A stretch of DNA of 64,000 nucleotides from NCBI GenBank assembly GCA_963846575.1, contig CAWJWJ010000002.1, forward strand, positions 384,001-448,000, in the 5' to 3' direction. Of this stretch, positions 50,421 to 64,000 are shown piece by piece. Position numbers and translations under genes: made by a program. The notes under the pieces are model-generated. The model had not been told where the DNA came from and did no database searches. It was given only the letters and a program-made list of their open reading frames with translations. Position 1 is the stretch's first letter, and every line of letters starts with the position of its first letter. This DNA is from an uncultured Nitrospiraceae bacterium. GTDB lineage: Bacteria > Nitrospirota > Nitrospiria > Nitrospirales > Nitrospiraceae.

Positions 50421-50496
50421 GGGGGGCTAGCTCAGTTGGGAGAGCACTACGTTCGCAACGTAGGGGTCGGGGGTTCAACTCCCCTGCCCTCCACCA
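50421..50496 (+). tRNA. tRNA-Ala (anticodon CGC)
   Basis: 76-nt cloverleaf: acceptor GGGGGGC/GCCCTCC with G3:U70, anticodon arm CTACG-TTCGCAA-CGTAG, TTCAACT T-loop, encoded CCA. Confidence 0.97.
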
Positions 50497-52159
50497 CTTT
50501 CGTTGATGACTTCAACGCCTGTCAGTAGACGATCGAATGTACCCGTGGCCGTGAAACGATAGCCTCGTTTCCCGCCTTTCTCAACGGGCTCGCACACAAT
50601 ATGTCCATCTAAAAGCTTCCTGAGCATTTGGCGGGCAAGAGGAATCTGTCTGGCAAACAGGGCAGGGATGTCTCCCACACGATTTCTTAGTTCCTTGGCC
50701 AGACGATTCTCGTCTACCTGAACCAGTTCGACAAGCTCATCAAGTTTTACTAATTCTGCCAATAACGTCTTCTTCCTTGCTTCCTCATGATGTAGGGACT
50801 CATCTATAGCATCAGTTGCTCTACCGTTTGCGATGTGTTCAACGAGATGATGTAGCCGCGTTTGTATCAAGGAGAGTTCTCGCTCAATAGCGACGCGCTG
50901 ATCAGGAAATTTCTTCTGTTCATTCCTGACTCGTTCGAGAGCTTTGGCTACTGAAGCTTCTAGCACCTGCTCATCTAGCACGTCGTTTATTGCGTGAAGA
51001 ATTGCGGAATCGAGGATATCCTGTCGGACTTCCACACTGTTGGTACACACAGCATGGCCCCGCTTATGATGATAGGCACAGCGATATGCGATTCGTGTGT
51101 AATGCTGTTTGGAGGTTCGCTTGATTGCCACGATTGACCCGCCGCAGGTGACACATTTTGCAATGCCGCTGAGCAAATAAGTAGACCTTAAATCCTCGCC
51201 TGTCGGTCGCGAAATGAGACGGCCACTTTTCTCTCGAAGGTACGCGCATTTGTTACTCAACCTGCGCGCTTCGACCTTTTCCCACAGCGTCTCGGAGATA
51301 ATCTTCAATTCTGGCGCTTCTAATCGAAGCCATTCCGACTGCGGACGTTTTCGTTGCTTACGGGTTCCACCCAGCTGGACGGTTTGAGTCCGATTCCAGA
51401 GCACCACTCCACGATAAAGATCACGGTGCAAAATGTCTCGAAGGGCTGTCGGGCACCACCCAAGAACCCCGCCGTGCGGAGGTGCGATGTGATCTTCATT
51501 TAATGCTTTTGCGATGCGGGCGAGCCCAAGCCCTGACGCGTACATTTCGAAAATCGGACGACGACCTTAGTTTGTTCAGTATTAATTCTTCTCACCACGT
51601 GTTGACGATGTGGTGTCCCGTCCGCGTTCGCCTGGTTACCGTATATGGGGACATTGTCATAGCCAAACACCTTATTCCCCGTTACGTGAAGAGCCTTGGC
51701 TTTTCGAAACATGGCGTCATAGGTTCTTTGACTCGCTTTCTCTCGCTCCATTTCTGCCGAGAAATTCGTGAGGCTGAGCATCACTTTGTCGAGAGCATTG
51801 TCGAGCTTTCGTTCTTGATTGGTCAGATAGAAGAATATGCGCACGCCACTGTCGATAATTTGCTTAAAGGCATAACTTGATTGAATGGCCTCGCGGCCCA
51901 ATCGAGACTCTTCGCTCATAATAAGAACTTGGAAAGCTGGACGTGGCTTAAGAGCATTCATCAGTCGAAGAAAGCCCTGTCGCTTTAAGAATTCCGCGCC
52001 AGACACGCCGTCATCAGAGTAAATATGCTCCTTAGAAACGGTCCAGCCCTTTTGTTCGGCATAGGCAATACCGTGTTCTATTTGACGAGTAACCGACTTC
52101 TCTTCATCACTGAACCCTACCTGTTCAGTCGACTTTCTACAGTAGATGGCCGCAATCAT
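50475..52159 (-). CDS. Large serine recombinase (integrase), about 560 aa, one frameshift near 51555
   Basis: Catalytic IYCRKST, SDDGVSG and ESRLGR; recombinase domain (FGY...IFEMY..G.G...IAK.LN); Zn ribbon CVTCGG...YRC; coiled coil. One added base joins the two ORFs. Confidence 0.88.
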
Positions 52160-52232
52160 CCCACTGCTCCTTTCAATTCCAAGTCGCCGCGTTTCGGCGA
52201 GGGAACATGAATGTTCCGACGCTGAGGGATTA

Positions 52233-52451
52233 TTAGCTTTCAGTGGACGGTGTCAACGCTAATTTACGGTTGGTTCGGGAAGGGGAATCGACCGTAAACA
52301 CTGTATGTGCTTGAAGATCCAAGAGAAGTAAATCATCAAGCAATGAAGAAATGTCATCGCGGAGTTGAGCGGAAATAGCTGTCTTGTCGGTTGGTGTCCA
52401 TTGTATTGATTTCTCTCTCACATGGATCGACCTAGCGTTACATCGTTTCAT
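52233..52451 (-). CDS. Small hypothetical protein upstream of the integrase (possible directionality factor)
   Basis: 72-aa ORF co-oriented with the integrase; amphipathic LRDDISSLLDDLLLLDL; function is positional inference only. Confidence 0.35.
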   Translation of the reverse strand: MKRCNARSIHVREKSIQWTPTDKTAISAQLRDDISSLLDDLLLLDLQAHTVFTVDSPSRTNRKLALTPSTES

Positions 52452-52713
52452 ATAAATGCTCTTCAGATTTAATTGGACCGGTGCCATTTACAAGATCCCA
52501 GTTCCATCGACTGAACCGTCTGCCGGTCCAACGGCTCCACGCCAAGAGTAAATCTCAGTAGGTGCGACCCGCGGCCGGGGAGCAGGGGATCAGGCCTTCC
52601 CGTCCGTTCGTCCAGGCCTGCCCGCTGCGAGAGCCTCGTGCCGCCTCTTCTTCTACGCCCCACCCTCGGTGTGTGAAGGGTGGGGCTACATAGCAATGAA
52701 GAAGGAGGCGCAC

Positions 52714-53217
52714 ATGTCTGTTGAAGGCTCTCTCGGTTCCTCGAACGGTGGACGGCCACTGAGCCAAAAATCCCGCTACGGCGTGCCTCGGTACCGCGTC
52801 ACGCTCGTGCGCGAGGGCCGTGCCATTCCCGCGACCGAGTCCATCACGACGTCGGAGGGCGCTGCGGAGCTCCTGCGTCCCTTGTTCGCCGGTCTGGACC
52901 GGGAGCAGTTCCTGTTCTGTGGCCTGGATGCGAAGCATCGGCTTATCGGCATCAATGTGGTGTCCACCGGGTCGCTCACCCTGGCCATTGTCCATCCCCG
53001 CGAAGTCTTCAAACCGCTGATCCTGATGAATGCCGGGGCCTGGATTTGTTCGCACAACCACCCCTCTGGCGATACCATGCCCAGCCCGGAAGATCGCGTC
53101 CTGACCACACGGCTGCGCGAAGCGGCTGATCTGTTCGGCATTCCGCTGCTGGACCATCTCATCTTGGCTGACGACCGCTATTACAGCTTCGCCGACCAGG
53201 GCTGGTTCGGCGCCTAG
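52714..53217 (+). CDS. RadC-like JAB/MPN domain protein
   Basis: DREQF....LD.KHR.I, VHPREVFK, HNHPSGD..PS.ED and LLDHLI motifs; AAGGAGG RBS. Confidence 0.92.
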   Translation: MSVEGSLGSSNGGRPLSQKSRYGVPRYRVTLVREGRAIPATESITTSEGAAELLRPLFAGLDREQFLFCGLDAKHRLIGINVVSTGSLTLAIVHPREVFKPLILMNAGAWICSHNHPSGDTMPSPEDRVLTTRLREAADLFGIPLLDHLILADDRYYSFADQGWFGA

Positions 53218-53342
53218 CGGAGCAGCCGCACCACCCAGGTCGCTCCGGCGGCTACCAAGGCGAGCCCGATCGCTGCCGTGCCCCAGGCGACCAGGTCGGT
53301 GGCCAACGCGTTCCCGATGTTTTGAATCTGTTGCGCCGTCAT
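53214..53342 (-). CDS. Leaderless coat-like protein, 42 aa, paralog of the adjacent major coat (not in ORF track)
   Basis: AAGGAG RBS; MTAQQIQNIGNALATDLVAWGTAAIGLALVAAGATWVVRLLR*; DL..W.TA.IG.AL shared with 53436-53648. Confidence 0.7.
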   Translation of the reverse strand: MTAQQIQNIGNALATDLVAWGTAAIGLALVAAGATWVVRLLR

Positions 53343-53435
53343 CACGAAACTCCTTTGCCGCCACCCTCTCGATGTTGTCGTAGGATGCGAGAAAAGGAGG
53401 CAGGCTGCTGCTCAGCCCGCCTCGATGGGCTCTTC

Positions 53436-53648
53436 CTAGCCCACAATCGCGCGCACGCGCTTAAAGGCGTAGATCGCCAGGGCCACGCCGATCAGGGCCG
53501 TAGCCCACAAGAGCAGATCAGCCCGCACTGTGGCCACATCCGCCGACACCGGAAACAACTGCGCCTGTGACAGCGCCGGGATGCCCAGGGCGAACACGAA
53601 CGCCATGAGCACGCCCCCAAGCCCCTTGACCCAACCCCATCCCTTCAT
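53436..53648 (-). CDS. Major coat protein (pVIII-like) with signal peptide, 70 aa
   Basis: Strong AAGGAGGTG RBS; leader ending SQA; mature part has amphipathic N-term, TM and basic C-term FKRVRAIVG. Confidence 0.8.
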   Translation of the reverse strand: MKGWGWVKGLGGVLMAFVFALGIPALSQAQLFPVSADVATVRADLLLWATALIGVALAIYAFKRVRAIVG

Positions 53649-53715
53649 ACTGCACCTCCTTGTGCTGTGGTGGTCACGTCCACCCACGCCGCCGGAATGC
53701 TCGCCGGCGGACGAG

Positions 53716-53759
53716 TGCCTCAAGGCCTTGAGGCAGAATCAGTGCTGAGGCAGAATCAG
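53716..53759. repeat. 20-bp perfect palindrome overlapping a 14-bp direct repeat
   Basis: TGCCTCAAGGCCTTGAGGCA at 53716-53735; TGAGGCAGAATCAG at 53729-53742 and 53746-53759. Confidence 0.85.
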
Positions 53760-53843
53760 CTTGATAATCAGACCGACGGCAAACCCGCCGAGCCAGAAGA
53801 TCGCTGTGAAGTAGGTCATCATCTCAATCGCCTGCTGGTCCAT
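53739..53843 (-). CDS. Small single-TM protein, 34 aa (pVII/pIX-like; not in ORF track)
   Basis: AAGGAG RBS; MDQQAIEMMTYFTAIFWLGGFAVGLIIKLILPQH*. Confidence 0.65.
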   Translation of the reverse strand: MDQQAIEMMTYFTAIFWLGGFAVGLIIKLILPQH

Positions 53844-54831
53844 AGAACACTCCTTCGCCGATCAGCTGCATCGATCCCTCTTCATAGACTTCCGACACGA
53901 CGACGCCATACCGGCCGGTGATCTGAGCCGCCGTGAGGATCTCGCCACTGTCCAACAGATAGCGCCAGCCTTGACGGTTCGCCGACATGCCGGCGCCGCC
54001 AAGAATGCGCACGGGGCGTTTGGGAAGTGACGGTGTGGCCACGGAGGGAGCGAACGCGCCCAAGGGATTCACCAGACTGCCCGGCGTCGATGCAGACGGC
54101 AGCGAAGACAATGTCGCGGTGCTACTCACGCTCGTTGCCGGCACTCCCTTGGTGCTGCTTAATGACGACCAGGGCCGCCAAACCATGAGGGTGAGAGCAA
54201 ACAGCCCTGCCGCAATGCCGATCGCCACCCGCGCCGACTTGAAGACCGTATGGCTGCGTTTCTCTTCCCGGATCGCCGCCGACGCGTAACTGGAATAGTA
54301 GGCGTAGATCGCCGGCGAATAGGTCCCGACGAAGGCCCGAATGACGTCATGGTCTTCGGGGTTCCCGCGCACCTTGCCCTGATATTTTTTCGCCAAGCCC
54401 ACGAAGGCGAGTTTTCGAAACTTCACCGTGGCTTCGATGAGCCGGGTCACACCTTGGGACATCTGGCGGAAATCCTGGCTCATGAGCAGAATGTCCACGC
54501 CGTAATGCCGATGGGTTTCGAGCCAGCGGAGGAGACCTGGCTCCACCTTCTGCATCGACCGAAACACGGTCTGGGCTTCGTCGATAATCACCGCCGAGCC
54601 CGGTTCGACATGTGGAAAGGCCTGCAGGACTTCCACGGAATCCTTCCAGATCGTGATCTGCTGTTCGAGGACGGAAAGTTCGATGCCCGTGAACAAGGCC
54701 AGCCGATCCAGATAGATCCCATCGACCGCGATGTAGAGTCGCCGGCCTTGCCGCACCCAGGGCAAGAATTTCTCGCAGATCGCGTGGTAGGACTTGCCCG
54801 AGCCCGGCACGCCTTCATACAGTTCAATCAT
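53824..54831 (-). CDS. Zot/pI-like morphogenesis ATPase
   Basis: Walker A GVPGSGKS at the N-terminus, Walker B VIIDEAQ, HRHYGVDILLMSQ, single TM then Ser/Pro-rich tail. Confidence 0.92.
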   Translation of the reverse strand: MIELYEGVPGSGKSYHAICEKFLPWVRQGRRLYIAVDGIYLDRLALFTGIELSVLEQQITIWKDSVEVLQAFPHVEPGSAVIIDEAQTVFRSMQKVEPGLLRWLETHRHYGVDILLMSQDFRQMSQGVTRLIEATVKFRKLAFVGLAKKYQGKVRGNPEDHDVIRAFVGTYSPAIYAYYSSYASAAIREEKRSHTVFKSARVAIGIAAGLFALTLMVWRPWSSLSSTKGVPATSVSSTATLSSLPSASTPGSLVNPLGAFAPSVATPSLPKRPVRILGGAGMSANRQGWRYLLDSGEILTAAQITGRYGVVVSEVYEEGSMQLIGEGVFYGPAGD

Positions 54832-54914
54832 CGGAGACTCCTCAGATACACCCAGATCCACAGGGCTAAGACGACGGTCCAGGCATAGGCCCACCCGATC
54901 ACGAGCTGGTTCAT
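54828..54914 (-). CDS. Small single-TM protein, 28 aa
   Basis: MNQLVIGWAYAWTVVLALWIWVYLRSLR*; ATGA overlaps with both neighbours. Confidence 0.65.
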   Translation of the reverse strand: MNQLVIGWAYAWTVVLALWIWVYLRSLR

Positions 54915-55186
54915 GAACCCCACCGGACAAATGGAATAGTCTGTAAGATGAATCGGGTCCCCATGGCGCTCGCCAGGATGGCCAGCGCCTGACTCATGCC
55001 CGTCGCGCCCAGCACCCACGCGTACTGATCGGGGATGACCGGCAGCGTGAGGCCTGCCGTCCCCACGGTCGCGAGCGTGCTGTCCGCCGCGGAGAGCAGC
55101 GAATCCCAGATGCTCAATCCCCAATCGGTGAGGGAGAAGAAGAACTCCTGCAGCCAGCAATAGATCAGGGTCAGAATGGCGGTCAT
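54911..55186 (-). CDS. pVI-like (DUF2523-type) minor coat protein, 91 aa
   Basis: MTAILTLIYCWLQEFF...AWVLGATGMSQALAILASA...RFILQTIPFVR; ATGA overlap with the upstream stop; lies between the pIII-like gene and pI. Confidence 0.75.
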   Translation of the reverse strand: MTAILTLIYCWLQEFFFSLTDWGLSIWDSLLSAADSTLATVGTAGLTLPVIPDQYAWVLGATGMSQALAILASAMGTRFILQTIPFVRWGS

Positions 55187-55819
55187 GAGCTGGTCTGGCC
55201 TCCCACAAAGATGATGCGGTACGCCGCAATGGAAGCCGCCGCAATGACCAATGTCCGGAGCACAGTGAAGAACCAGGCCCATTGATTGAAGTCGACGTGC
55301 TGACTGCCGAAGAAGGCGGAGGGCAGCGCAATCACCGGCAACGTCGACCGCACAGAGGGGAACATTGGTCGTGCTGAATTGGATGCTCGCATTGAGGTAA
55401 TTCGCATTGGCCGGGGTGCTGGTCCCGAGACCCGGAAAGGTCTGGATGCCGGCGTTGCTGCTCGTGACTTGCCAGCCGCCGGGTGTTGAAGCCGCCGATT
55501 TAATGGCCGACAGGTCGGATTGCGAATAGTACATCTGAGCCAGGACTAAGCCGGCCCCCACGCCGAGTGCGGCCCACCCAACCGGACCGGCGACCATGCG
55601 GACGGCTACAGAGGCGGCCGAGGGCGCCACTGCAGCGGAGGCCACCTGACCCGCCAAGGCGGACCGTTGCGCGGCGAGATAGGCAATGCGTTCGGCTTGC
55701 GCGACCACCCTGGAATACTGCGTGGCGGTTTGTGCGAGGGATTCTCCAGGTGCCAGACAGAACGAGACCAAAAGGCCCCAGATAAGTGAGAGATAACTGG
55801 TGAGTGAAAGCAGTTTCAC
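55183..55819 (-). pseudogene. pIII-like attachment protein, frameshifted and probably internally deleted near 55348
   Basis: Signal peptide and ~155-aa N-part in one frame; C-terminal anchor STLPVIALP...VDFNQWAWFFTVLRTLVIAAASIAAYRIIF in another. Confidence 0.65.
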
Positions 55820-55890
55820 AATCGTCCAACTCCAAGGCCGGTGAGGAAGGCCAGTAACAGGACCGCCACGAGAATAATGGTGAGATCCAC
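55816..55890 (-). CDS. Small single-TM protein, 24 aa (pVII-like)
   Basis: GGGAGG RBS, GTG start, MDLTIILVAVLLLAFLTGLGVGRL*; GTGA overlap with the pIII-like start. Confidence 0.6.
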   Translation of the reverse strand: MDLTIILVAVLLLAFLTGLGVGRL

Positions 55891-56394
55891 CGGCCTTCCT
55901 CCCTCTGCCGTTATTTCAAGACTTCCAGCCCAGAGAGGTCGAAGAAGACCCGTCCGGTCTGCTCGAACTTCCGGACTTCGATCGAGACTTTCGCTTGCTT
56001 GCCCTCGGCTTGCTTGCAGGCTTCGATTAAGGGCATCTGATCGTCCGGAATCCCCAATCGAAGCACCCCCGGATCTCGGCCCTTCACATAGAGATCCACC
56101 GATCGGTAGACTTTCCCTTCCCGACTCCTCCGCTCCACATAGCCCTGGACCGCTCCCTCCGCTTTGACTTGCATCGTCGTCCCCTCCTGAATAATGGATT
56201 GAATTCGGATCAGCCAAGCGCCTGACCCACACGCCCCGGCCTTCAGACCGGGCTTTTGGTCGAAAGCAGAATTCCGAATCGCATTCCCGACAGCTCAGAT
56301 ACAAGGCGCCCTGTTCCCACTTGCACCGACAGCCTCTCGCGCCACATCCCGGACACATGCGTCGCCAGTAGCCGTTATGAAACTCTAAGGACAT
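55816..56394 (-). CDS. Zn-ribbon ORF (CPGC...CREC) reading through the SSB gene in another frame
   Basis: Two CxxC pairs in the first 40 aa; true extent uncertain. Confidence 0.35.
   Translation of the reverse strand: MSLEFHNGYWRRMCPGCGARGCRCKWEQGALYLSCRECDSEFCFRPKARSEGRGVWVRRLADPNSIHYSGGDDDASQSGGSGPGLCGAEESGRESLPIGGSLCEGPRSGGASIGDSGRSDALNRSLQASRGQASESLDRSPEVRADRTGLLRPLWAGSLEITAEGGRPVDLTIILVAVLLLAFLTGLGVGRL
55911..56174 (-). CDS. ssDNA-binding protein (pV-like), 87 aa
   Basis: Size, beta-rich pattern (SREGKVY hairpin), position after Rep, GGAGG RBS. Confidence 0.65.
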   Translation of the reverse strand: MQVKAEGAVQGYVERRSREGKVYRSVDLYVKGRDPGVLRLGIPDDQMPLIEACKQAEGKQAKVSIEVRKFEQTGRVFFDLSGLEVLK

Positions 56395-57367
56395 AGGGCG
56401 TGCCTTTTCGTCGTTCCTTCAGCAGGGCATAGTGTTTCTGCTTCCATTTCTTGGTGCCGGCATAGATCAACTCCTTCAGGAACTGATCACCTCGGCAGGC
56501 CACCACCACGGCCAGCATCGAGGCAACGGATTGGGCGAGCCAGGCGGCCACGTCATCTAGCCGTTGCTGAATCCGTTCAACCACCAGGCGGCAGCGCTTG
56601 AAGCCTTCGGTCAGGGCGTGCCACCACCCCAACAGCGGCGCCCGATATTTTTCGTAGGATTCCGCTTCCCGCGTCGTCTCGCGGAAATCCACATAGGAGC
56701 GGAGCACCCCCACCATAAAGGCCCGCCAGTCTTCGGCATCGAGCGTGAGCAGAGCTTTGGCGCAGGCTTGGGCCCGGTCTTGTTTGAATTCCATTTCCCA
56801 CCGGACTCCATAGGAGGCCGCGTCTTCCCGGCCTTCGACTCTGCAGTTCCAGTCGTTTGTCATAGACCCGCAGCATGCTTTGGCTTTCCCGGCTGCCAAA
56901 GTAGAGGGTTTCACCGGTCCGGACCCCGTCGCGTGATTGGAGGCTTGGATCACTTTGAATTGCTTAGACCGACTCACGACCTGTCCGGCTTCCACGGCTT
57001 GCCGGACGGTCTCAACTGCGACCGTGGCCTCCCGGTCGTCCAGGGCCACGTCGGTCCGAGTCACATGGCCCTTCTGCGCGAAGATCCAGGCCAGGACCGT
57101 CTTCAGCTTGATCTCATCCCACTGGGAGATAATTCCGGCCGACAGATCCACGTGCACTTCCTTCGGACTGCGAGGCGCACCCGTCCCCAGTTTCCCCACG
57201 CCGGTCTTGCCCTGCGTCATGAGCCGTGCGACGGGATAGCCGCGAAAGCCCGTCTCACTCTGGAACCAATCGCCCCCAATCGTCTTGATGACCTCGTCCA
57301 CGTCAGCCTTCGGCAGTGTGAACGCCAGCCAATCAATCGTGTGAGTGAATCCGCCAGAACCCGTCAT
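56375..57367 (-). CDS. Rep_trans-family rolling-circle initiator; two compensating frameshifts near 56930 and 56836
   Basis: IDWLAFT, TRTDVALDD and RWEMEFK; the catalytic segment GETLYFGSRESQSMLRVYDK is in an alternative frame. Confidence 0.88.
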   Translation of the reverse strand: MTGSGGFTHTIDWLAFTLPKADVDEVIKTIGGDWFQSETGFRGYPVARLMTQGKTGVGKLGTGAPRSPKEVHVDLSAGIISQWDEIKLKTVLAWIFAQKGHVTRTDVALDDREATVAVETVRQAVEAGQVVSRSKQFKVIQASNHATGSGPVKPSTLAAGKAKACCGSMTNDWNCRVEGREDAASYGVRWEMEFKQDRAQACAKALLTLDAEDWRAFMVGVLRSYVDFRETTREAESYEKYRAPLLGWWHALTEGFKRCRLVVERIQQRLDDVAAWLAQSVASMLAVVVACRGDQFLKELIYAGTKKWKQKHYALLKERRKGTPYVLRVS

Positions 57368-57396
57368 TTTTTGCTCCTTGGCTTGCGTGCGATAGA

Positions 57397-57423
57397 CGCC
57401 CCCGTCTTACCAAGTCGGGGGCG
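57397..57423 (-). other. Predicted double-strand origin (nick-site hairpin)
   Basis: Minus strand CGCCCCCG-ACTTGGTAAGA-CGGGGGCG, 30 nt upstream of rep; resembles the C-run/TAA/G-run nick hairpins of Rep_trans/MOBT enzymes. Confidence 0.7.
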
Positions 57424-57676
57424 GGGTCGGCTGCGCGCGCCGCCGGCTGGCGCCGCCTTGCGCGCTGCGCGATCCCGTCTTTCTCCCGGCTTCGACAAAA
57501 GACGGACCATTCCCTTTGGCCTGCAGCGCTTCCTTGACGCGTTCAAGATCGAAACGGACGAACCGACAGAAGCGATCAACCGGAATCTCGCCTTTGCGGT
57601 AAGCGCGGCGGATCGACTTCGGGCTGACTTTGAGGACGGCGGCCAACTCATCGACGGTTAACCATGTTTGTTCCAT
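57407..57676 (-). CDS. Xis-like/HTH_17 DNA-binding protein
   Basis: WLTVDELAAVLKVSPKSIRRAYRKGEIP...VRFD; AAGGAG RBS. Confidence 0.85.
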   Translation of the reverse strand: MEQTWLTVDELAAVLKVSPKSIRRAYRKGEIPVDRFCRFVRFDLERVKEALQAKGNGPSFVEAGRKTGSRSAQGGASRRRAQPTPPPTW

Positions 57677-57765
57677 CACGTCTCCTTTGTGAGTGCAGCA
57701 CACGATGTATGGCGGAACCATACGCATCTGCGTGCGGTGGTGAAAAGAGGCCGGTTCATGGACCT

Positions 57766-57795
57766 GGGGACACCAGGGGACACTGAGGGACACTA
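57766..57795. repeat. Three tandem 10-bp direct repeats
   Basis: GGGGACACCA GGGGACACTG AGGGACACTA, upstream of the HTH gene. Confidence 0.8.
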
Positions 57796-58432
57796 CGGCA
57801 TTCCATTCCAAGCCGTGATCAGAGCAGGAATGGGAGTCGAAGGAATCTATGCAAAAAGATTGTCAGGAGGATGAGTCGCTACTGAAGAATGACGAAAGGC
57901 CACGCTGGGCTTGATGGTTCGACGGCTGGTACGAATAAGGCCTATGGAAATTTATAGGGCAAATGGAACTGAGATGAGGCGAATCATCTTTAGCGCCCCG
58001 ATCAAAATACGGCGCAATCATGCAAAAAATAGTCATCGGGCCAAATTACTTTGAATAGGGCCAAATGGCTCTGGCCTCAACAGGGCGAATTCGAGCCTCG
58101 TGCTTTGGGCAATAGAGAGAAGTCACAGTGGACGGTGTTGCAAGAAAGTAATGGTTGATGGCCTTCCAACGAGCGAAGACTGGAAAACTGTAGAGCCCGA
58201 GATAATCGACTTCACCTTCGGGTGAGTGTGAAGTGGGTATGGTCCTGGCCGACCAATGCGGCTGAAGAAAATAATCACGACTACAGTGGGCTTGCAAGCG
58301 ATTAAGTTCGCACATGCGGTACAAGAGGTTCTTATCTCTCAGCCTTAAACAGAAACCCCCCTACTGCACGTTTGGCACTTCGCGGCAGTTGGGAGCACTC
58401 GATCAGCAGTGGCAGGAAGACTCTGTGAAACT

Positions 58433-58575
58433 TTAGCCCGGCTGAATAGCAGTGAATTCCAGAACGAAGGTTGTCCCTTCGTCTTCTGAACTGTGCACGC
58501 GAATTCTCCCTTTGTGATCCTCCACGACGGCTTGCACGAGGGTCAGCCCGAGGCCCCAGCCTGGAAGTTGTGAAT
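58433..58575 (-). pseudogene. C-terminal remnant of a histidine kinase ATPase domain
   Basis: GWGLGLTLVQAVVEDHKGRIRVHSSEDEGTTFVLEF; no upstream kinase domains. Confidence 0.7.
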
Positions 58576-59120
58576 GGGAAGTCCTCGTCGGCCTAGAATA
58601 ACCGCTTAAAAAATCTAATTGACCAGAGAGTTCAAGAAGCGTAATCCGCGTCACAACGGGAATCGTGCACCTTGATATTGAGCAAGAAGCGTCATCAGGA
58701 AGCTTGGTTTAGCATCGCCTGCGGTGAGAGTTCGGCAATCGTATGGCCGCAAAAACTGCCTGAAACGTTTCAAGTGGACGACAGAAGAGGGCCACTAGAT
58801 GCACCGAGCAACCCATCGTTATCAAAAACTCCTTTGGCAAATCCCATGGGATGTCTTTGAATGAATCGATAACACTATTGCGGAGGCGCCGAAGGCGGGA
58901 TGTGATTCACACACCCTAGACGGGCTTAAATATCTAGAAACCCTCTCATCAGCTGTCCAAGATCGCAGAGGTTCTCTCCGAAGCGACCGGACGATCGCGA
59001 AGAATTCGATGAGGATTTGGACGATGAGACCGCGATTGAAATCCGCCAGCCTGCTCCATGGCATCAAGAAAGATAACAAAGGTGACTGTTCCTGGGAGAC
59101 CGGGTCGTCGGAAGGTGCCG

Positions 59121-59272
59121 ATGTTTTTCATGTGGGCCGCAATCTTCTTTCTAATCGCACTGGCTGCAGGCGCCGTCGGGTTTACTGACATTTCTGCCGA
59201 CGCCTCGCATATTCCAGAATCCTGTTCTGTATTTCATGGGCGATTTTTCTCTTTTTACTCAGTCCTGGTTGA
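59121..59272 (+). pseudogene. DUF1328-type small membrane protein, frameshift near 59213
   Basis: WAAIFFLIALAAGAVGFTDI...ASHI continues as RILFCISWAIFLFLL in the shifted frame. Confidence 0.65.
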
Positions 59273-59704
59273 TTTTAATCAAAATATCAAGTCGGTCGCG
59301 CGTGGCGTCGGGATCAATGGCAATTGGAGAGGGCTGCTTCGAAACATAAAAATAAGATGCTCAAGTACCGCTGCCTGGCCAAATCTCCGGAAAGCGCTAT
59401 ACTTCTACTATGCTCGCGCCGGAATTCATCCTCTTCCTGATGCTCGATGTCATGGTGCTGACGTGGACCGTCTTGAAGGTCTTGGTCAACCGTATGATTG
59501 ATTCGGATCCCCATCTCCCCCCTCGTGTCACAGCACAACCCTCAGAGCCTTCTGATCATCTTCGGCGAGTGGCCTAACTTGTAGGCCCGTGCATCATCCT
59601 CGTTCCAATCTATCCTGCTGACTAAATATATACGCAACATGTCTCCAGGGCGACATGTCCCTTCCACTCCCCGCGGATTAATATTGAGGAGGCCATTCCC
59701 GTCT

Positions 59705-60064
59705 ATGGACCAGGTCGACGCACACCTAGAGATCCTTCTGCAAGACTTTATGCGACTGTGTCCCGAGGACGCGCCCTTAGAGGCAGACGACTGGACCGGC
59801 CTGCATGAAATTTATGTGTTTATCTACGAGCAGGGGATTCAGTGCGTACCTTCGACCTTTCGAGATTTCTTGATTCAGCACGGCTATTCCGAGAATAAGG
59901 CGAGAGCCGTGAGTCAGCACTATAGTCAGTACCTTCACCAGCTGAAGGTGCGTGGTCACGATCCCCAGACCTCTGTCCAGAAGCTGGACGAGACGCCAAC
60001 GCAAACTGGCGCTGAGGCTCACTCTCAGAATAAAGGGGCGACGGATGTGTCGGTTCCAATTTAA
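59705..60064 (+). CDS. Hypothetical protein
   Basis: 119-aa helical-looking ORF, GAGGAGG upstream. Confidence 0.55.
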   Translation: MDQVDAHLEILLQDFMRLCPEDAPLEADDWTGLHEIYVFIYEQGIQCVPSTFRDFLIQHGYSENKARAVSQHYSQYLHQLKVRGHDPQTSVQKLDETPTQTGAEAHSQNKGATDVSVPI

Positions 60065-60221
60065 CCGTAAGAATCATGATTCCGTTGTCGTCGAGGGGAG
60101 CCGGGTCGACATAGTGGACGGCTATATCACAGTCGTGGATGCGCAAGACCGGCCTCTTGCGACGTTTGACCCAGCCGAGCTGTCGAGTTGGTACCGAGTC
60201 ATGGACCCGTTCAGAACTTAA
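60045..60221 (+). CDS. Small hypothetical protein, 58 aa
   Basis: AAGGGG RBS; beta-rich MCRFQF...VDGYITVVD...LATF..AELSSW. Confidence 0.45.
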   Translation: MCRFQFNRKNHDSVVVEGSRVDIVDGYITVVDAQDRPLATFDPAELSSWYRVMDPFRT

Positions 60222-60300
60222 TTCTTTTTCGTACGCCGGTCAGCAGTCGGCCCCCGATGATAATGGTTGACCCATGGACGCAAAAGGGGTGTTTGTCTCA

Positions 60301-60882
60301 TCAGTCGCGCTGTATCTCAACCTCCCTCCATCCGAGCCTATCAGACAGTAAGACGGTGTCGTGGCATTCCCATACCTTGAGGGTGTCGTCTGGAGTCCAG
60401 GCGTCAACTGGATACGTGCAGAGGGCCACAATATTCGCCTCCCCGACTGCCTCGGTCACGCCGCGTTCATAGGCGAGGAATCGCGCGCGCTGCTCCGGGG
60501 ACTGCAGCCACGATGAATCGCCTGTTACGCGAAATCCTGTGAAGCGGGGCGCCACCTGTACCACCTTCCGCATGCACGTCGCGAACATCGTCTCTGGATC
60601 GAGCGGGGCCTCCGGCCGGTACCATTCGCTGGAGGCGACGAGGTCCAACTGTCCCGTCTGAAGGTAATCGTACACGTTTGGAACAGTGCGCTGAAGGAGG
60701 ATCGTGGCCGCGGACGGGCTCAGCCAGGGCGGAAGGATCCAGTGGCAACCTTCGTGGTCGGCTAATCCGGCCTCGATATAAGAACAGATGAGCATGTGCA
60801 AGTCAGCGGCAGATCGGTAGAAGGCACATAGATGACTGCCCCAGGGCAGTGTCTGAGAAAGGGTTGTGCTGAGACGGGGCAT
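60301..60882 (-). CDS. Stand-alone MEDS sensory domain protein
   Basis: PWGSHLCAFY, YIEAGL...E.C.WI, FRVTGD..W, YE and ALCTY motifs. Confidence 0.85.
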   Translation of the reverse strand: MPRLSTTLSQTLPWGSHLCAFYRSAADLHMLICSYIEAGLADHEGCHWILPPWLSPSAATILLQRTVPNVYDYLQTGQLDLVASSEWYRPEAPLDPETMFATCMRKVVQVAPRFTGFRVTGDSSWLQSPEQRARFLAYERGVTEAVGEANIVALCTYPVDAWTPDDTLKVWECHDTVLLSDRLGWREVEIQRD

Positions 60883-61263
60883 GGCGTCCTTACGGTGGAG
60901 GTCTAAGTTCCGCTGCGCGATCAGCCTGCGTCTCTAAGGTGGCGAGAGCGCGCTCCCGCTCGCGCAATCCTTCGGACAGAAATGGGGGACCAGAAAATTT
61001 GGGTGAGCCACTGTCTGAATAAAAGTGGACGGTAGGGGACAGAGAAAGGGACGCTGACAGGCGAGGTGCCATGATGGCGTCACTCTATCATTATTTACGT
61101 AGTCGTCAGCTAGTAAGTCCTCTAGAGCAGAGTGTATGGTTTGGCCAACGCCTGTTCGGCCTAGCTGGCAGAAGAGGAAGGACCGTGGTCAGCGGGAAGC
61201 TAGAAGATTCGCGTGGGAACTCCAAGACAGGCGTACCGAGACCTTATCGTAGCGGAGTTGCGT

Positions 61264-61668
61264 TTAGTGCGTCGGACCAAGGAGTGTTTGCATAGTCATG
61301 CGCAACTGGTCGACGCCAAGCGGCTTCGTCAGCACGGCGTCAGCTCCGCGTCGCTCCCGGGAGGTCAGCATTGCCTCCGGCTCTGGTAAGCCAGACACGG
61401 CAAGGATTTTCAGGGCTGGACACGCTGCTCGTAACTCACGAATGACTTCCCAGCCGTCGCCGTTCGGCATGTGCATATCGGTGATCACGGCGTCGGTGGG
61501 CGACGCTCGAAAGCGGCACACGCCCGCTCGGCCGTTCTCGGCTTCGACGATCGTATAGCCGACGGGTTCCAGAATCGCCCGGATGAGAGTGCGCACGGCC
61601 TCCTCATCGTCAATCACCAGAATCGACGCGACGGCAGGAGACGAGATTGGTTCGAGGGTATGCTGCAC
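61264..61668 (-). CDS. Single-domain response regulator (CheY-like)
   Basis: ILVIDD, ITDMHMP..DG, AVSG and TKP motifs; GTG start with GAAGGG RBS. Confidence 0.85.
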   Translation of the reverse strand: MQHTLEPISSPAVASILVIDDEEAVRTLIRAILEPVGYTIVEAENGRAGVCRFRASPTDAVITDMHMPNGDGWEVIRELRAACPALKILAVSGLPEPEAMLTSRERRGADAVLTKPLGVDQLRMTMQTLLGPTH

Positions 61669-61839
61669 GGTGTCCCTTCGTGAAAACGAGTAACCTTTTA
61701 ATATTACCAGTATAATAGCCCTCGAATGGCTGTGAGAAGCCCTAGTTTTTGTCATCCTTCCGTTGCTGTCATCCCGAGGTGCCAAGGATATACCCTCGAT
61801 GCTGGTGAACACATGCTCTTACCTGTAGATTGTGGACGC

Positions 61840-62352
61840 ATGAGAACCATATCCCGCTATTGGGGCTATCGCGCCACTGGGTTACTGCTGGTTCTTGTCG
61901 TCGCGCCGAGCCTCGCACATGCGGAGTATATCGGGACAGTGGTGGGCGTGATCGACGGCGATTCCATCCGAGTCATCCACGATGGCCAGGCCGAGCAGAT
62001 TCGCCTCCTCGGGATCGACTGCCCCGAGAAACGTCAGCCATTCGGCACACGGGCCAGGGAATATACCTCTGAGCTGGCCTTTGGGCAGGATGTCACGGTG
62101 TACGGAGACAAGCGAGATCGCTATGGCTGACGGCTGGCCGAAGTCCTCCTCCCCGACGGCCGTAGCCTGAATCAGGAACTGGTCAAGGCTGGTTTCGCCT
62201 GGTGGTTTCGAAAGTATTCGAAGAATCTACGGTTGGGAGAGTTGGAACGGCAGGCGAGAATAGCGAAGAGAGGCTTATGGGTTGATCCGCGGCCGGAGCC
62301 ACCCTGGGAGTGGCAGAACAGCATTAAGCAGTCCAACGATGGGAATCAATAG
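61840..62352 (+). pseudogene. Secreted thermonuclease (SNase/ParB-nuc type) with internal TGA at 62128-62130
   Basis: IDGDSI, IRLLGIDCPE..QPFG, DRYG*RLA, LNQELVKAG.AW and A.RGLW...PWEW all in one frame. Confidence 0.85.
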
Positions 62353-62429
62353 ATGCATTGCGTCCCACTAGAACTCCTAAATTACTTTAAGCCACATCGA
62401 GAAGCACGTGAGGCAGTTCGGACACCTAC

Positions 62430-63221
62430 TCAACCAAGAGTTCGTGACATGATGTCGGTAGAAATCACGTGCGCCACGTGGATCACCCGCGAAGGTGCAA
62501 GGCCTCCCCAGCGTCCCCAGGGCCGAAATGTCAACGTCCAGACGCGGCGTGTATTGGCCGACGTGTTCGTATGGGCGGTGTGCAACGTCAGCGCACCATG
62601 GACCATGGCTCCCCCTGCTGACAGCGGACAGTTCACTGCCTTAGACGCATCCACATAATCCGTCATCAAGGATGAGGGATCATTGGGAAAGAAGGGGCGA
62701 TGCGGCAGGACGGCTTGATTTCGCTCCAGAGGGATATACTGCATACACCCGTTTTCGGTACCGACATCGTGCAAGGGAATCCAAAAGACGATGCTGTTGT
62801 GGCGACTGTACTTTCCATGAAAGCCTGCGTCCTGATGCCAGGGGCTCCCGACGCTACCATGCGCTTCCTTGTAGAGAGCTCGATCGTTTCCATAGAGGGC
62901 CGTGGGCCCGAGCAATTGCCTCGCGATAACCTGACAGGATTGAAAGACGCGAGTGTTGAGTAAGGCAGGCACTAGCCGCGTCGGTCGGTCAATGGCTCCA
63001 TAGGCAAGCCCTTGGTCAGCATACAGGCGGTCAATCCTACTGCCTATCCACGCAATCTCGCTCCGCCTGGTGAGTGTAGGGACGCGTAAGAAGCCTTCTT
63101 CTCGGTATCTACTGACCTCTTCCCTTGTCAAAATTCGGTGCCCGTATCTGTCGAACTGCAGAGACACATGAGAAGGCAGGAAAGTAGTATGTATGCGTGG
63201 CTCCAAGGTCGCAGGGTTCAT
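62430..63221 (-). CDS. PhyH-family Fe(II)/2OG dioxygenase
   Basis: YREEGF, PWHQD, WIPL.D...ENGCM.YIP and G...H..LTLH...N...RR motifs. Confidence 0.85.
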   Translation of the reverse strand: MNPATLEPRIHTTFLPSHVSLQFDRYGHRILTREEVSRYREEGFLRVPTLTRRSEIAWIGSRIDRLYADQGLAYGAIDRPTRLVPALLNTRVFQSCQVIARQLLGPTALYGNDRALYKEAHGSVGSPWHQDAGFHGKYSRHNSIVFWIPLHDVGTENGCMQYIPLERNQAVLPHRPFFPNDPSSLMTDYVDASKAVNCPLSAGGAMVHGALTLHTAHTNTSANTRRVWTLTFRPWGRWGGLAPSRVIHVAHVISTDIMSRTLG

Positions 63222-63326
63222 GGCTACACCTCCAGAGAGCCCTAGGCTATCGAGGAGTTAAGGATACAGCTAGCCTACAGAAGGGATCGGACAGATCCCT
63301 TAGAGGTAGGCTCCACTGAAGCGTGA

Positions 63327-63821
63327 TTATCGGCTGAGTTCCGCGACACGCAGGTCGCGTTCTTTCATGTTGCGTGCCGACGTGAGGTCAGGGTGCCCCA
63401 ACAGGGTGTGCAATACCTCCTGTCGGAGTTGCCCTCGCAACGCTTTGCTCGCCATGGAAGAGACCGCAGGATCTTGCAAGAGGTTTAGCCAACCAATGGT
63501 AGCGGCATCATAGCGGCTAGTGGGCATAGCCGTGTGCAACTCCTGAAACACCCGAATCGCATCGGCACGATTTTCGAAAAGGGCCACCAACCCGCGGGCA
63601 TAGTACGCATCTTCACACGCAGACCCTTTGTGACAAGTTTTCATTCGAGTGTCCTGTGCCTGGGCAATCGCCTTGAGCGGAGTGAGTTCGGCCGCGTCGC
63701 TGGAAAAGTAGGCGCTACTCGGTAGGGTCGTGGACGAGCCAGCCTTCATCATCGTACAGCCTGCTATCCCCCCGGCCAGGAGGACCCCGAGTGCAAAACC
63801 GAGGATCGTTCGTTGGGACAT
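63327..63821 (-). CDS. Hypothetical lipoprotein with a TPR-like segment
   Basis: AGGAGG RBS; lipobox IAGC; AYYARGLVALF...A...F..L....P.SRY. Confidence 0.7.
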   Translation of the reverse strand: MSQRTILGFALGVLLAGGIAGCTMMKAGSSTTLPSSAYFSSDAAELTPLKAIAQAQDTRMKTCHKGSACEDAYYARGLVALFENRADAIRVFQELHTAMPTSRYDAATIGWLNLLQDPAVSSMASKALRGQLRQEVLHTLLGHPDLTSARNMKERDLRVAELSR

Positions 63822-64000
63822 GGCGTGCCTCCTAAAAAGTGACGGTGTAGGCTTGCGTTTACTATCTCTGTCGACACTCTGATTGTAGCGATGAACTTCG
63901 ACCGGTCATGATGCGGAGGATGTACTGCTTCGGTACGGTGTCTCTCGGCAAGCAAGATTAAGGCGAGCTAGTAATGCTGAGCATGAGTCATCTCTGAGAG

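Follow-up and report, generated by a model that had tools for sequence, protein, structure and literature searches.

The subject of this report is a prophage of the inovirus (filamentous phage) type that adjoins a large serine recombinase (LSR) and a gene for tRNA-Ala(CGC) in the genome of an uncultured Nitrospira. It lies in a stretch of 64,000 nucleotides from GenBank assembly GCA_963846575.1, called the window below, and positions refer to that window unless a contig or locus label precedes them. Among the closest described systems, CTXphi and the Pf-type phages reside in the chromosome as prophages, lack a secretin of their own and are exported through a secretin of the host, and carry accessory or toxin cargo at one end. 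The Pf phages integrate at a tRNA site with a tyrosine integrase and form prophages of about 12 kb, and CTXphi uses XerCD and dif. To our knowledge, neither CTXphi nor the Pf-type phages have been found with an LSR or inside units of 13-35 kb bounded by attachment (att) sites. The integrase-bearing Vibrio pathogenicity island, about 40 kb beside a tRNA-like gene, was reportedly the genome of a filamentous phage (VPI-phi), a claim that is said not to have been reproduced; we know of no inovirus morphogenesis genes in that island. The Nitrospira islands described below differ from it in that a complete inovirus gene set, known from genes alone, lies inside them.

Serine recombinases have also been linked to filamentous phages. 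In the passages of the phiRSM report that were consulted, a small serine recombinase integrates the phage at a 13-nt core at the 3' end of tRNA-Ser (PMC3816273). The Ralstonia phages phiRSM1 and phiRSM3 and the present elements share a phage-linked serine recombinase and a site at a tRNA 3' end, with a core of 12-13 nt here. They differ in the enzyme, which for phiRSM is given in those passages as a small Int of the resolvase/invertase type and here is a protein of 561-567 residues with Resolvase, Recombinase (PF07508) and Zn_ribbon_recom (PF13408) domains, and in the extent of the unit; the phiRSM prophage is described there as att-bounded and about 9 kb long, whereas here att sites bracket 16.6-28.4 kb. 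A unit of Int and attP of the phiRSM type was rejected for this locus on the size and the domains of its enzyme. The inovirus survey of Roux 2019 (PMC6813254), in the parts consulted, describes tyrosine and serine (Y- and S-) recombinase families in inoviruses, names replication and integration genes as those most exchanged, and includes one inovirus species in Nitrospirae, of 7,503 bp, and a RadC family in 6 sequences. Its sole S-recombinase family is Resolvase/HTH_7, with one DUF4368; a term search of its supplement file 6 found neither PF07508 nor Zn_ribbon_recom, and its passages and supplements that were searched do not describe one core with about ten tRNA targets or island-sized, att-bounded units. 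An earlier note on this DNA, made from the sequence without database searches, had left serine recombinases off its list of known integration routes, and as far as they were consulted both of these sources place them on it. Integration of inoviruses by serine recombinases at a tRNA 3' end and the lack of a phage secretin are already known. In a search of the literature on inoviruses, serine recombinases and Nitrospira, none of the listed titles or abstract openings describes an LSR-linked inovirus or the present lineage.

Among the 15 matches listed, the lowest tblastn E-value (1e-15) belongs to the Alteromonas phage phiAFP1, whose Zot is 31.5% identical over 43% of its length. That phage resembles the present elements in having its regulator, Rep, single-stranded DNA-binding protein (SSB), structural genes and Zot on one strand, with a small open reading frame (ORF) after Zot. 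It differs in being without an integrase and in its annotated major capsid gene, which precedes the pIII-like gene in the canonical order, whereas here both coat-like genes follow pI. The earlier note had remarked on this unusual order, which is true throughout the lineage; because phiAFP1, the listed phage whose gene order was inspected, keeps the canonical order, the placement of the coat genes after pI can be regarded as a lineage trait, if a modest one. The proposal of a distinct inovirus lineage is likewise sustained, in that Zot is less than 35% identical to those of annotated phages and only in its N-terminal part.

The reading favoured here, and the one that we consider probable, is that a conserved inovirus core, an exchangeable module of attP and integrase, and cargo together form one integrative tRNA island, and that the whole 28.4-kb unit to which the window copy belongs integrated as a circle. 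By comparison of the copies, the conserved core spans 52,561-58,073 (5.5 kb). An LSR module, made up of the LSR gene and a small companion ORF (orf84), is joined to the RadC side of this core and would have inserted the element in the 3' end of tRNA-Ala(CGC). The circle would consist of the core and a single variable arc, which runs from a palindrome at the right end of the core through cargo, attP and integrase and back to the RadC boundary. Given that integration splits attP, the integrase and the phage would end up beside the tRNA, and the cargo at the opposite end of the island. The earlier note had ended the element at 57800, short of the core end at 58,073 and far short of the end of the att-bounded island at about 78,824. 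Its picture of a compact LSR phage of 7.4 kb is not upheld; its other suggestion, a phage nested in or joined to an LSR island, agrees with att sites that bracket about 28.4 kb.

The core was sought in 39 Nitrospira genomes, 29 of them of high quality. Zot, the pI-type assembly ATPase, is encoded in 21 of the 39 and in 16 of the 29, with up to four copies per genome. The genome that contains the window (G000; 4.2 Mb in two contigs, C1 and C2) has three further copies of 52,561-57,792 at 83-91% identity, all without the LSR segment. These are called A, B and C, and the window copy W; A, B and C adjoin tyrosine integrases at tRNA-Arg(TCT), tRNA-Phe and tRNA-Lys, respectively. For comparison, 37 loci were assembled from 33 places in the genus with flanks, the three further copies and the window, leaving aside four short contigs and partial rows from G000. 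A recombinase lies on the RadC side in 36 of the 37 and a tRNA gene within 7 kb in 34, and the three loci without a tRNA run to contig ends. Integration by XerCD and dif, as in CTXphi, was set aside on these counts; no search was made for a dif-like site.

The recombinase is of the LSR type in 5 of the 36 cases: four at tRNA-Ala(CGC), in the window, G006, G040 and G029, and one divergent LSR at tRNA-Glu(TTC). The tyrosine-integrase copies lie at Arg(TCT), Arg(CCT), Gly(CCC), Phe, Lys(TTT), Lys(CTT), Thr(TGT) and Ser(TGA), with Lys(TTT) used by two integrase types. In total, the core is partnered with two LSR types, several tyrosine-integrase types and ten tRNA targets. The arrangement of core, orf84, LSR and tRNA-Ala(CGC) is found in three other genomes of the genus, each with an intact LSR, and the linkage pointed out by the earlier note is thus not a one-off; relatives of orf84 (about 46% amino acid identity) adjoin LSR-type copies only. 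A metagenome set supplied 80 core loci, 27 of which reach more than 3.3 kb past Zot. RadC is present in all 27, an integrase match in 26 and the LSR of the tRNA-Glu type in 4.

The LSR family of the tRNA-Ala site also heads islands that contain no inovirus (L108, L113, L114). These inovirus-free islands at tRNA-Ala(CGC) carry a Type ISP restriction-modification system with FRG, CHAT-TPR, or HsdR with DUF3631. Genes like the second LSR type occur in G045, a genome without Zot, and no LSR is present beside the empty tRNA-Ala sites of 6 genus genomes. At L109, L111, L112 and L115, in other Nitrospira MAGs, small elements consist of HTH and Rep_trans genes (38-57% identical), sometimes with SSB and RadC, followed by the same LSR family and tRNA-Ala(CGC). 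Zot and coat genes are missing from these elements, which are possibly kin to the phage backbone, as satellites or as integrative elements of a plasmid-like kind.

The phylogeny of the core is decoupled from the type of integrase. A tree built from Rep and Zot of 29 copies requires 19 changes of integrase label, where the minimum is 10 and the mean over shuffled labels is 20.6; a value as low was reached in 31 of 200 shuffles. W, A and B form a well-supported clade, although W has an LSR and A and B have tyrosine integrases of different types. Between G040, G006 and G029, LSR identity is 99-100%, and the cores of these genomes are scattered in the tree. Exchange of the block of attP and integrase would let related phages take new tRNA sites within one genome.

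The extent of the islands follows from their att sites and their cargo, for which the relevant features are:

50421..50496, plus strand: tRNA-Ala(CGC), the integration target on the attL side (ARAGORN; sole tRNA in the window).
50485..50512, plus strand: attL, a 12-nt core TGCCCTCCACCA (the tRNA 3' end) and then the P' arm CTTTCGTTGAT...; the core is repeated at C2:462824-462835 and the P' arm matches the junction at L113.
58074..64000, no strand: first part of the LSR island's accessory region (20.8 kb), which continues to about 78,823, outside the window (Pfam; att analysis).
L124:716-8672 (G029), with the same in L125 (G006) and L126 (G024): Rhs-type cargo inside an att-bounded island.

The LSR att core, (C)TGCCCTCCACCA, is formed by the last 12-13 nt of tRNA-Ala, a gene whose sequence is identical or has one mismatch in 9 relatives, whether occupied or empty. 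At the far end, the attR core at C2:462824-462835 corresponds to window coordinate 78,824 or so, outside the window and about 20.8 kb beyond the phage. It is preceded by the P arm (…CCAACGATGGG…), which is conserved at the corresponding places in G029, G006 and G040, and the exact core plus P arm occurs only once in the genome of the window. In G029 and G006, what comes after the attR core is similar to the DNA beyond tRNA-Ala at unoccupied sites. At L113:3800-4050, a remnant of the LSR C-terminus is followed by the 12-nt core and the P arm, making a P'-core-P junction in which the inverted repeats ATCAACGA and TCGTTGA stand at a distance of 28 nt, with their centre close to the core's 5' end; from its sequence, it is a probable attP of the LSR family, left by tandem elements. 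The att architecture of an LSR, with a short shared core, inverted-repeat arms and attL/attR hybrids at the ends, thus appears to be present. The LSR-bounded units measure 28.4 kb in G000, 16.6 kb in G029, 16.7 kb in G006 and 20.6 kb in G040.

The copies with tyrosine integrases are bounded in the same manner. For copy A, a perfect 40-nt repeat of the 5' half of tRNA-Arg lies at 32.0 kb; for copy B, the 3' part of tRNA-Phe recurs as a perfect 53-nt repeat at 25.3 kb, and the copy in G024 has a 39-nt repeat at 17 kb. Repeats were also found in 8 of 10 further copies, at 12.8-35.1 kb. Of the 16 copies in which island ends were sought, 15 have both, with sizes of 12.8-35.1 kb, and in six the repeats are 100% identical over 40-55 nt. 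Perfect long repeats around whole islands imply that the cargo was inside the molecule at integration. Near the phage end itself, a search with words of 7-9 nt, over the far ends of W, A and B as well as the 34 loci with an adjacent tRNA, found no tRNA repeat, though other elements at the same tRNAs were detected, and no second tRNA-Ala 3' end was found inside the window. The TAGGGCC palindrome at the right end of the core was ruled out as an LSR att site, given that it is present with every integrase type. In 6 relatives the region downstream of tRNA-Ala is without conserved synteny, and the far flank of L063 is not conserved in 5 phage-free genomes, so the island ends are not to be set by comparison with empty sites. 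Beyond its LSR-type island, G040 has a pair of attR-like sites, each with core and P arm, at a spacing of 3.4 kb (C1:656345 and 659728; L145), which suggests a second, largely lost LSR element in tandem. Other integrase-bearing elements, with 40-nt and 26-nt repeats, lie on the opposite (3') side of the same tRNA-Arg(CCT) and tRNA-Gly at L078 (G011) and L079 (G006), and these two tRNA genes are therefore used from both sides.

The cargo also travels across integrase types. In G029, G006 and G024, a protein of 2454 residues with SpvB, TcdB-mid, FG-GAP and RHS repeats, followed by a small ORF of 194 residues, comes directly after the palindrome. This 6.9-kb Rhs-type cargo accompanies the LSR at Ala(CGC) in G029 and G006; in G024, it is found at Arg(CCT), under a tyrosine integrase. 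Because the same cargo occurs under two integrases at two tRNAs, core and cargo must have remained joined through a change of the integration module. The C-terminal tip of the Rhs-type protein and the small ORF are variable, as in polymorphic toxin/immunity pairs. The islands of W and A have about 2 kb of cargo in common at 86-91.5% identity, which is near that of their cores. The far side of W has no homology to the cargo of G029, G006 and G024, and no Rhs homologue was found in its genome.

The cargo of W includes a kinase fragment, MEDS, response regulators, PhyH, PilZ-EamA, tyrosinase and PAS/GAF kinases, with no mobility gene. The kinase fragment (58433-58654) is the C-terminal part of a histidine kinase (HATPase_c only, 73 residues) that lies just outside the degenerate palindrome, at a GC content of about 0.50, and is a sign of rearrangement at the junction of phage and cargo. 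A 555-nt segment with an ORF of 141 residues that belongs to no family occurs twice in the same LSR island as direct repeats of 90% identity, at 59638-60192 and at C2:460186-460742 (about 76,186). The 1.95-kb PilZ-EamA region at C2:449255-451205 (about 65,330-67,280, outside the window) has a 98.4% copy at C2:2721189-2723137, and an LSR-like fragment (34-50% identical) at C2:2724231-2725446 adjoins that second copy.

A number of observations weigh against the island as a single circular element. No circular form, as judged by terminal overlaps, was found among the 80 metagenome loci, and among 13 IMG/VR fragments, for which annotations only were used, none has integrase-module genes upstream of HTH and none is circle-like. 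Contigs from 4 metagenome runs that align to the window also contain no circle-like joint. Characterised inoviruses are about 5-12 kb in size. The accessory genes of W resemble ordinary host signalling genes, and its attR core of 12 nt, taken alone, has an E-value of 0.39 in 53 kb and is backed by about 40 nt of similarity in the P arm. L086 is the one copy of the 16 for which no repeat was found within 40 kb. The frameshift in the LSR of W, described below, may be an error of the assembly. Clustering of the cores follows the host genome, as in the well-supported clade of W, B and A, which also fits a core that hops between resident islands. The main rival holds that the integrase-less core of 5.5 kb is itself the mobile entity and was inserted secondarily beside the integrases of existing tRNA islands, possibly in a Rep-dependent manner; LSR and cargo would then be parts of the island and not of the phage. 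We regard this as unlikely, if still the most serious competitor. It would explain why the core has sharp boundaries on both sides that are the same in all copies, independent of the flanking DNA, why the core phylogeny is decoupled from the integrase with co-resident copies as nearest relatives, why the same LSR family heads the inovirus-free islands L108, L113 and L114 and LSR2-like genes occur in the Zot-free G045, and why nearly identical LSRs in G040, G006 and G029 stand beside different cores. However, among the loci with enough flank, 36 of the genus set and 27 of the metagenome set, the core was in no case found apart from an integrase, the junctions have neither a target-site duplication nor a common target motif, and no island was found that is homologous on both flanks yet free of the core. 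A hopping core would also have to account for the joint presence of core and Rhs cargo under two different integrases, and Pfam and PHROG profiles detect no recombinase besides Rep within it.

The other two explanations concern the DNA to the right of the core. In one, LSR and inovirus (50421 to about 58073; 7.4-8 kb) make up the complete prophage, and the DNA rightward is host DNA or belongs to older, unrelated islands. All phage functions and one integrase do fit in 8 kb, a typical inovirus size, no mobility genes lie right of 58,073, and the kinase gene just outside the palindrome is truncated. Such a compact prophage is nonetheless improbable, given that none of the 4 LSR-type copies has an att repeat or a P arm by the palindrome and that P arm and core are met 8.4-20.8 kb further on. 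Likewise, the tyrosine-type copies have their perfect repeats of 40-55 nt at a distance of 12.8-35 kb and none at the phage end, and the DNA just past the palindrome is common to copies at different tRNAs. In the other, older islands already occupied the tRNA when an integrase-bearing inovirus inserted next to them, and the att sites in between then eroded. The tRNA genes are hot spots, where other elements with their own integrases and repeats are seen (L078, L079, L064), and extra partial repeats at 40-42 kb in G004 and the paired attR-like sites in G040 are of the kind that tandem accretion would leave. It is the least probable of the alternatives and very improbable in itself, in that the internal repeat would have to be lost in 15 of 15 copies while the outer repeat stayed perfect or near-perfect (100% over 40-55 nt in six), and the same search by 7-9-nt words, which covered the far ends of W, A and B as well as 34 loci, found no degraded internal att copy after the palindrome.

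For the preferred reading of one integrative island, a full cycle can be outlined. The integrase would excise the whole island, Rep_trans would replicate it, and a secretin of the host would export it as a long filament. No secretin domain was found in the element, as the earlier note had stated, and the genome has two secretin genes elsewhere, so that use of the host secretins by the phage may be inferred. That the tRNA islands of 13-35 kb are, in the full sense, the genomes of extra-long filamentous phages that are replicated from the inovirus origin and extruded whole through the host secretin is a tentative proposal, and we hold it to be doubtful.

Gene identities within the window were assigned with Pfam and PHROG profiles, the tRNA with ARAGORN, and the SSB with an AF2 model searched by Foldseek against the PDB. 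The features between tRNA and cargo are as follows:

50475..51545, minus strand: C-terminal part of the LSR, with Recombinase and Zn_ribbon_recom domains and a coiled-coil region (PF07508, 4e-17; PF13408, 7.5e-12; PHROG 95, integrase).
51546..51560, minus strand: frameshift site of the LSR, a 1-nt deletion relative to intact relatives (alignment, translation).
51500..52159, minus strand: N-terminal part of the LSR, the Resolvase catalytic domain (PF00239, 2.9e-23).
52233..52487, minus strand: orf84, the small ORF that accompanies the LSR module (no Pfam or PHROG match).
52561..52620, no strand: left end of the inovirus core, GGTGCGACCC...CAGGCCTTCCCG (onset of homology among copies).
52669..53217, plus strand: RadC-like JAB protein, antisense to the phage genes and within the conserved core (PF04002, 8e-39).
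53214..53342, minus strand: coat-like protein of 42 residues with a hydrophobic core and basic C-terminus, without a signal peptide (translation).
53436..53648 (listed ORF to 53723), minus strand: coat-like protein of 70 residues with a signal peptide (...SQA|Q), a transmembrane (TM) segment and a basic tail (sequence features).
53739..53843, minus strand: TM protein of 34 residues (translation; open in 37 of 37 loci).
53824..54930, minus strand: pI/Zot assembly ATPase (PF05707, 2.5e-29, 102.6 bits against a cut-off of 20.3; PHROG 197, 8e-47).
54911..55189, minus strand: pVI-like minor coat protein of 92 residues (PHROG 306/974, E about 1e-7; Pfam DUF2523 under the cut-off).
55183..55819, minus strand: pIII remnant, with the N-terminal 159 residues at 55342-55819 and the C-terminal anchor at 55183-55341 out of frame (alignment with L065, L010 and L066).
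55816..55920, minus strand: small TM protein upstream of pIII, in a p7/p9-like position (open in 37 of 37 loci, 82-100% identity).
55911..56174, minus strand: predicted OB-fold ssDNA-binding protein of 87 residues (AF2 pLDDT 90; no sequence-family match).
56215..56394, minus strand: Zn-ribbon-like N-terminus (CxxC...CxxC) of ORF 55816-56394 (sequence; no family match).
56375..57367, minus strand: Rep_trans rolling-circle initiator (PF02486, 1e-21).
57389..57422, no strand: 34-nt hairpin upstream of Rep, candidate double-strand origin or operator (conservation and DNA fold).
57407..57676 (listed ORF to 57811), minus strand: HTH_17 regulator of the excisionase/MerR type (PF12728, 6.6e-8).
57766..57792, no strand: three GGGGACA-type repeats (sequence; kept in aligned copies).
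58035..58073, no strand: right end of the core, a TAGGGCC-type repeat plus palindrome TAGGGCCAnnTGGCCCTA, degenerate in the window (TAGGGCCAAATGGCTCTG).

Much of the earlier note's gene list is borne out by these assignments. HTH, Rep_trans, pI/Zot, the antisense RadC and tRNA-Ala are as it had named them, PF05707, PF02486 and PF07508, the profiles it had proposed for searches, all match, and the host is Nitrospira as it had guessed. The LSR segment, whose stop codon falls within tRNA-Ala(CGC), is more AT-rich than the phage genes, as it had also noticed, with GC contents of 0.46-0.53 and 0.58-0.65, respectively. RadC was found in every flanked copy. The likely start of pI/Zot is Met34, near 54831, and that of HTH_17, from its sequence context, the ATG at 57676 after AAAGGAG. 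The pVI-like protein, a label the note had also applied and that PHROG 306/974 supports, is 92-97% identical in 36 of 37 loci.

The small genes were weighed by their conservation. The coat-like ORF of 42 residues is open in 36 of 37 loci at 88-95% identity, and that of 70 residues in 36 of 37 at 87-99%. Neither matches a Pfam or PHROG family, and both are candidates for the major coat protein by their architecture (one TM segment and a basic C-terminus). Overall, the four small TM or coat-like ORFs are open in 36-37 of the 37 loci with 81-100% amino acid identity, and they can therefore be considered real genes, as had been claimed. In the model of the 87-residue protein, which the note had called an SSB, five strands form a barrel accompanied by one helix, and the best PDB hits are without exception SSB or PriB (27 at E <= 0.001); the protein is thus predicted to be an SSB from its OB-fold. 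Its amino acid identity is 89-99% in most flanked copies and lower in the decayed L011. The Zn-ribbon part of ORF 55816-56394 was found in 34 of 37 loci at 41-92% identity, and the remainder of that ORF overlaps the SSB in another frame.

The noncoding elements of the core are also shared among copies. The hairpin upstream of Rep, which the note had proposed as the double-strand origin and for which it is a reasonable candidate, is present in 29 of 37 loci and identical in 19, and the 61-nt stretch at 57385-57445 is predicted to fold at -17.7 to -18.3 kcal/mol. Homology between copies with different integrases ends about 700 nt upstream of Rep. There, in most copies and at the same place regardless of integrase, the motifs stand in the order CTAGGGCCAAAAAC, a few bases, and the palindrome TAGGGCCAnnTGGCCCTA.

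The copy in the window is damaged in two genes. The earlier note had described a serine integrase, and all three LSR domains are indeed present, PF07508 among them, but a 1-nt deletion near 51553, between '...VVVR' and 'IFEMYASG...', divides them over two ORFs (51500-52159 and 50475-51545). In relatives, the LSR is a single ORF of 561-567 residues; it is one ORF in L065, where it has 567, and in L062 and L066. Contigs of metagenome runs over the LSR come from relatives only, at about 93% identity. Among public sequencing runs, none has more than 9% of the words sampled from the genome, and no RNA run is listed.

The ORF that had been called pIII-like does begin with the N-terminal 159 residues of pIII, but as a whole it is a fusion made by a deletion of 633 nt with its junction at 55341/55342. 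Those residues are joined to the pVI frame, which is read through from the pIII remnant (ORF 54911-55819), and the anchor is out of frame. The intact protein of L065 has 422 residues and runs from a signal peptide through a T/Q-rich linker to a C-terminal anchor, and we infer from this architecture that it is a pIII. In all other copies examined, the two halves of the gene are about 520-625 nt apart, so the missing segment is retained there, and contigs of 4 metagenome runs (85% likeness) diverge from the window at 55347, which is the deletion junction. The deletion is harder than the frameshift to explain as an assembly error. Because of the frameshift and the deletion, the window copy is probably inert. 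In copies A (Zot at C2:1347616-1348712) and C (Zot at C1:2640-3707), Zot is broken by a frameshift or stop codons; copy C is also cut off by the beginning of contig C1 and has a fragmented tyrosine integrase. At most copy B of the four looks intact, and its RadC match consists of two overlapping pieces.

Nitrospira play a key part in nitrification in soils, waters and treatment plants, and their phages are almost entirely unknown. One inovirus core is found in roughly half of the genus genomes, each copy with a differing module of attP and integrase and variable cargo, which makes a replicated natural case of integration-module exchange. The window copy itself is a decaying prophage that forms the integrase-proximal quarter of a larger LSR-bounded island. 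The lineage provides matched pairs of att sites with LSRs and tyrosine integrases for ten tRNA sites. If the islands are phage genomes, an inovirus would ferry Rhs-type toxin cassettes and signalling genes between Nitrospira cells, and several prophages would accumulate per genome by switching of tRNA targets. In short, the family is a concrete test case for filamentous phages that move island-sized DNA.

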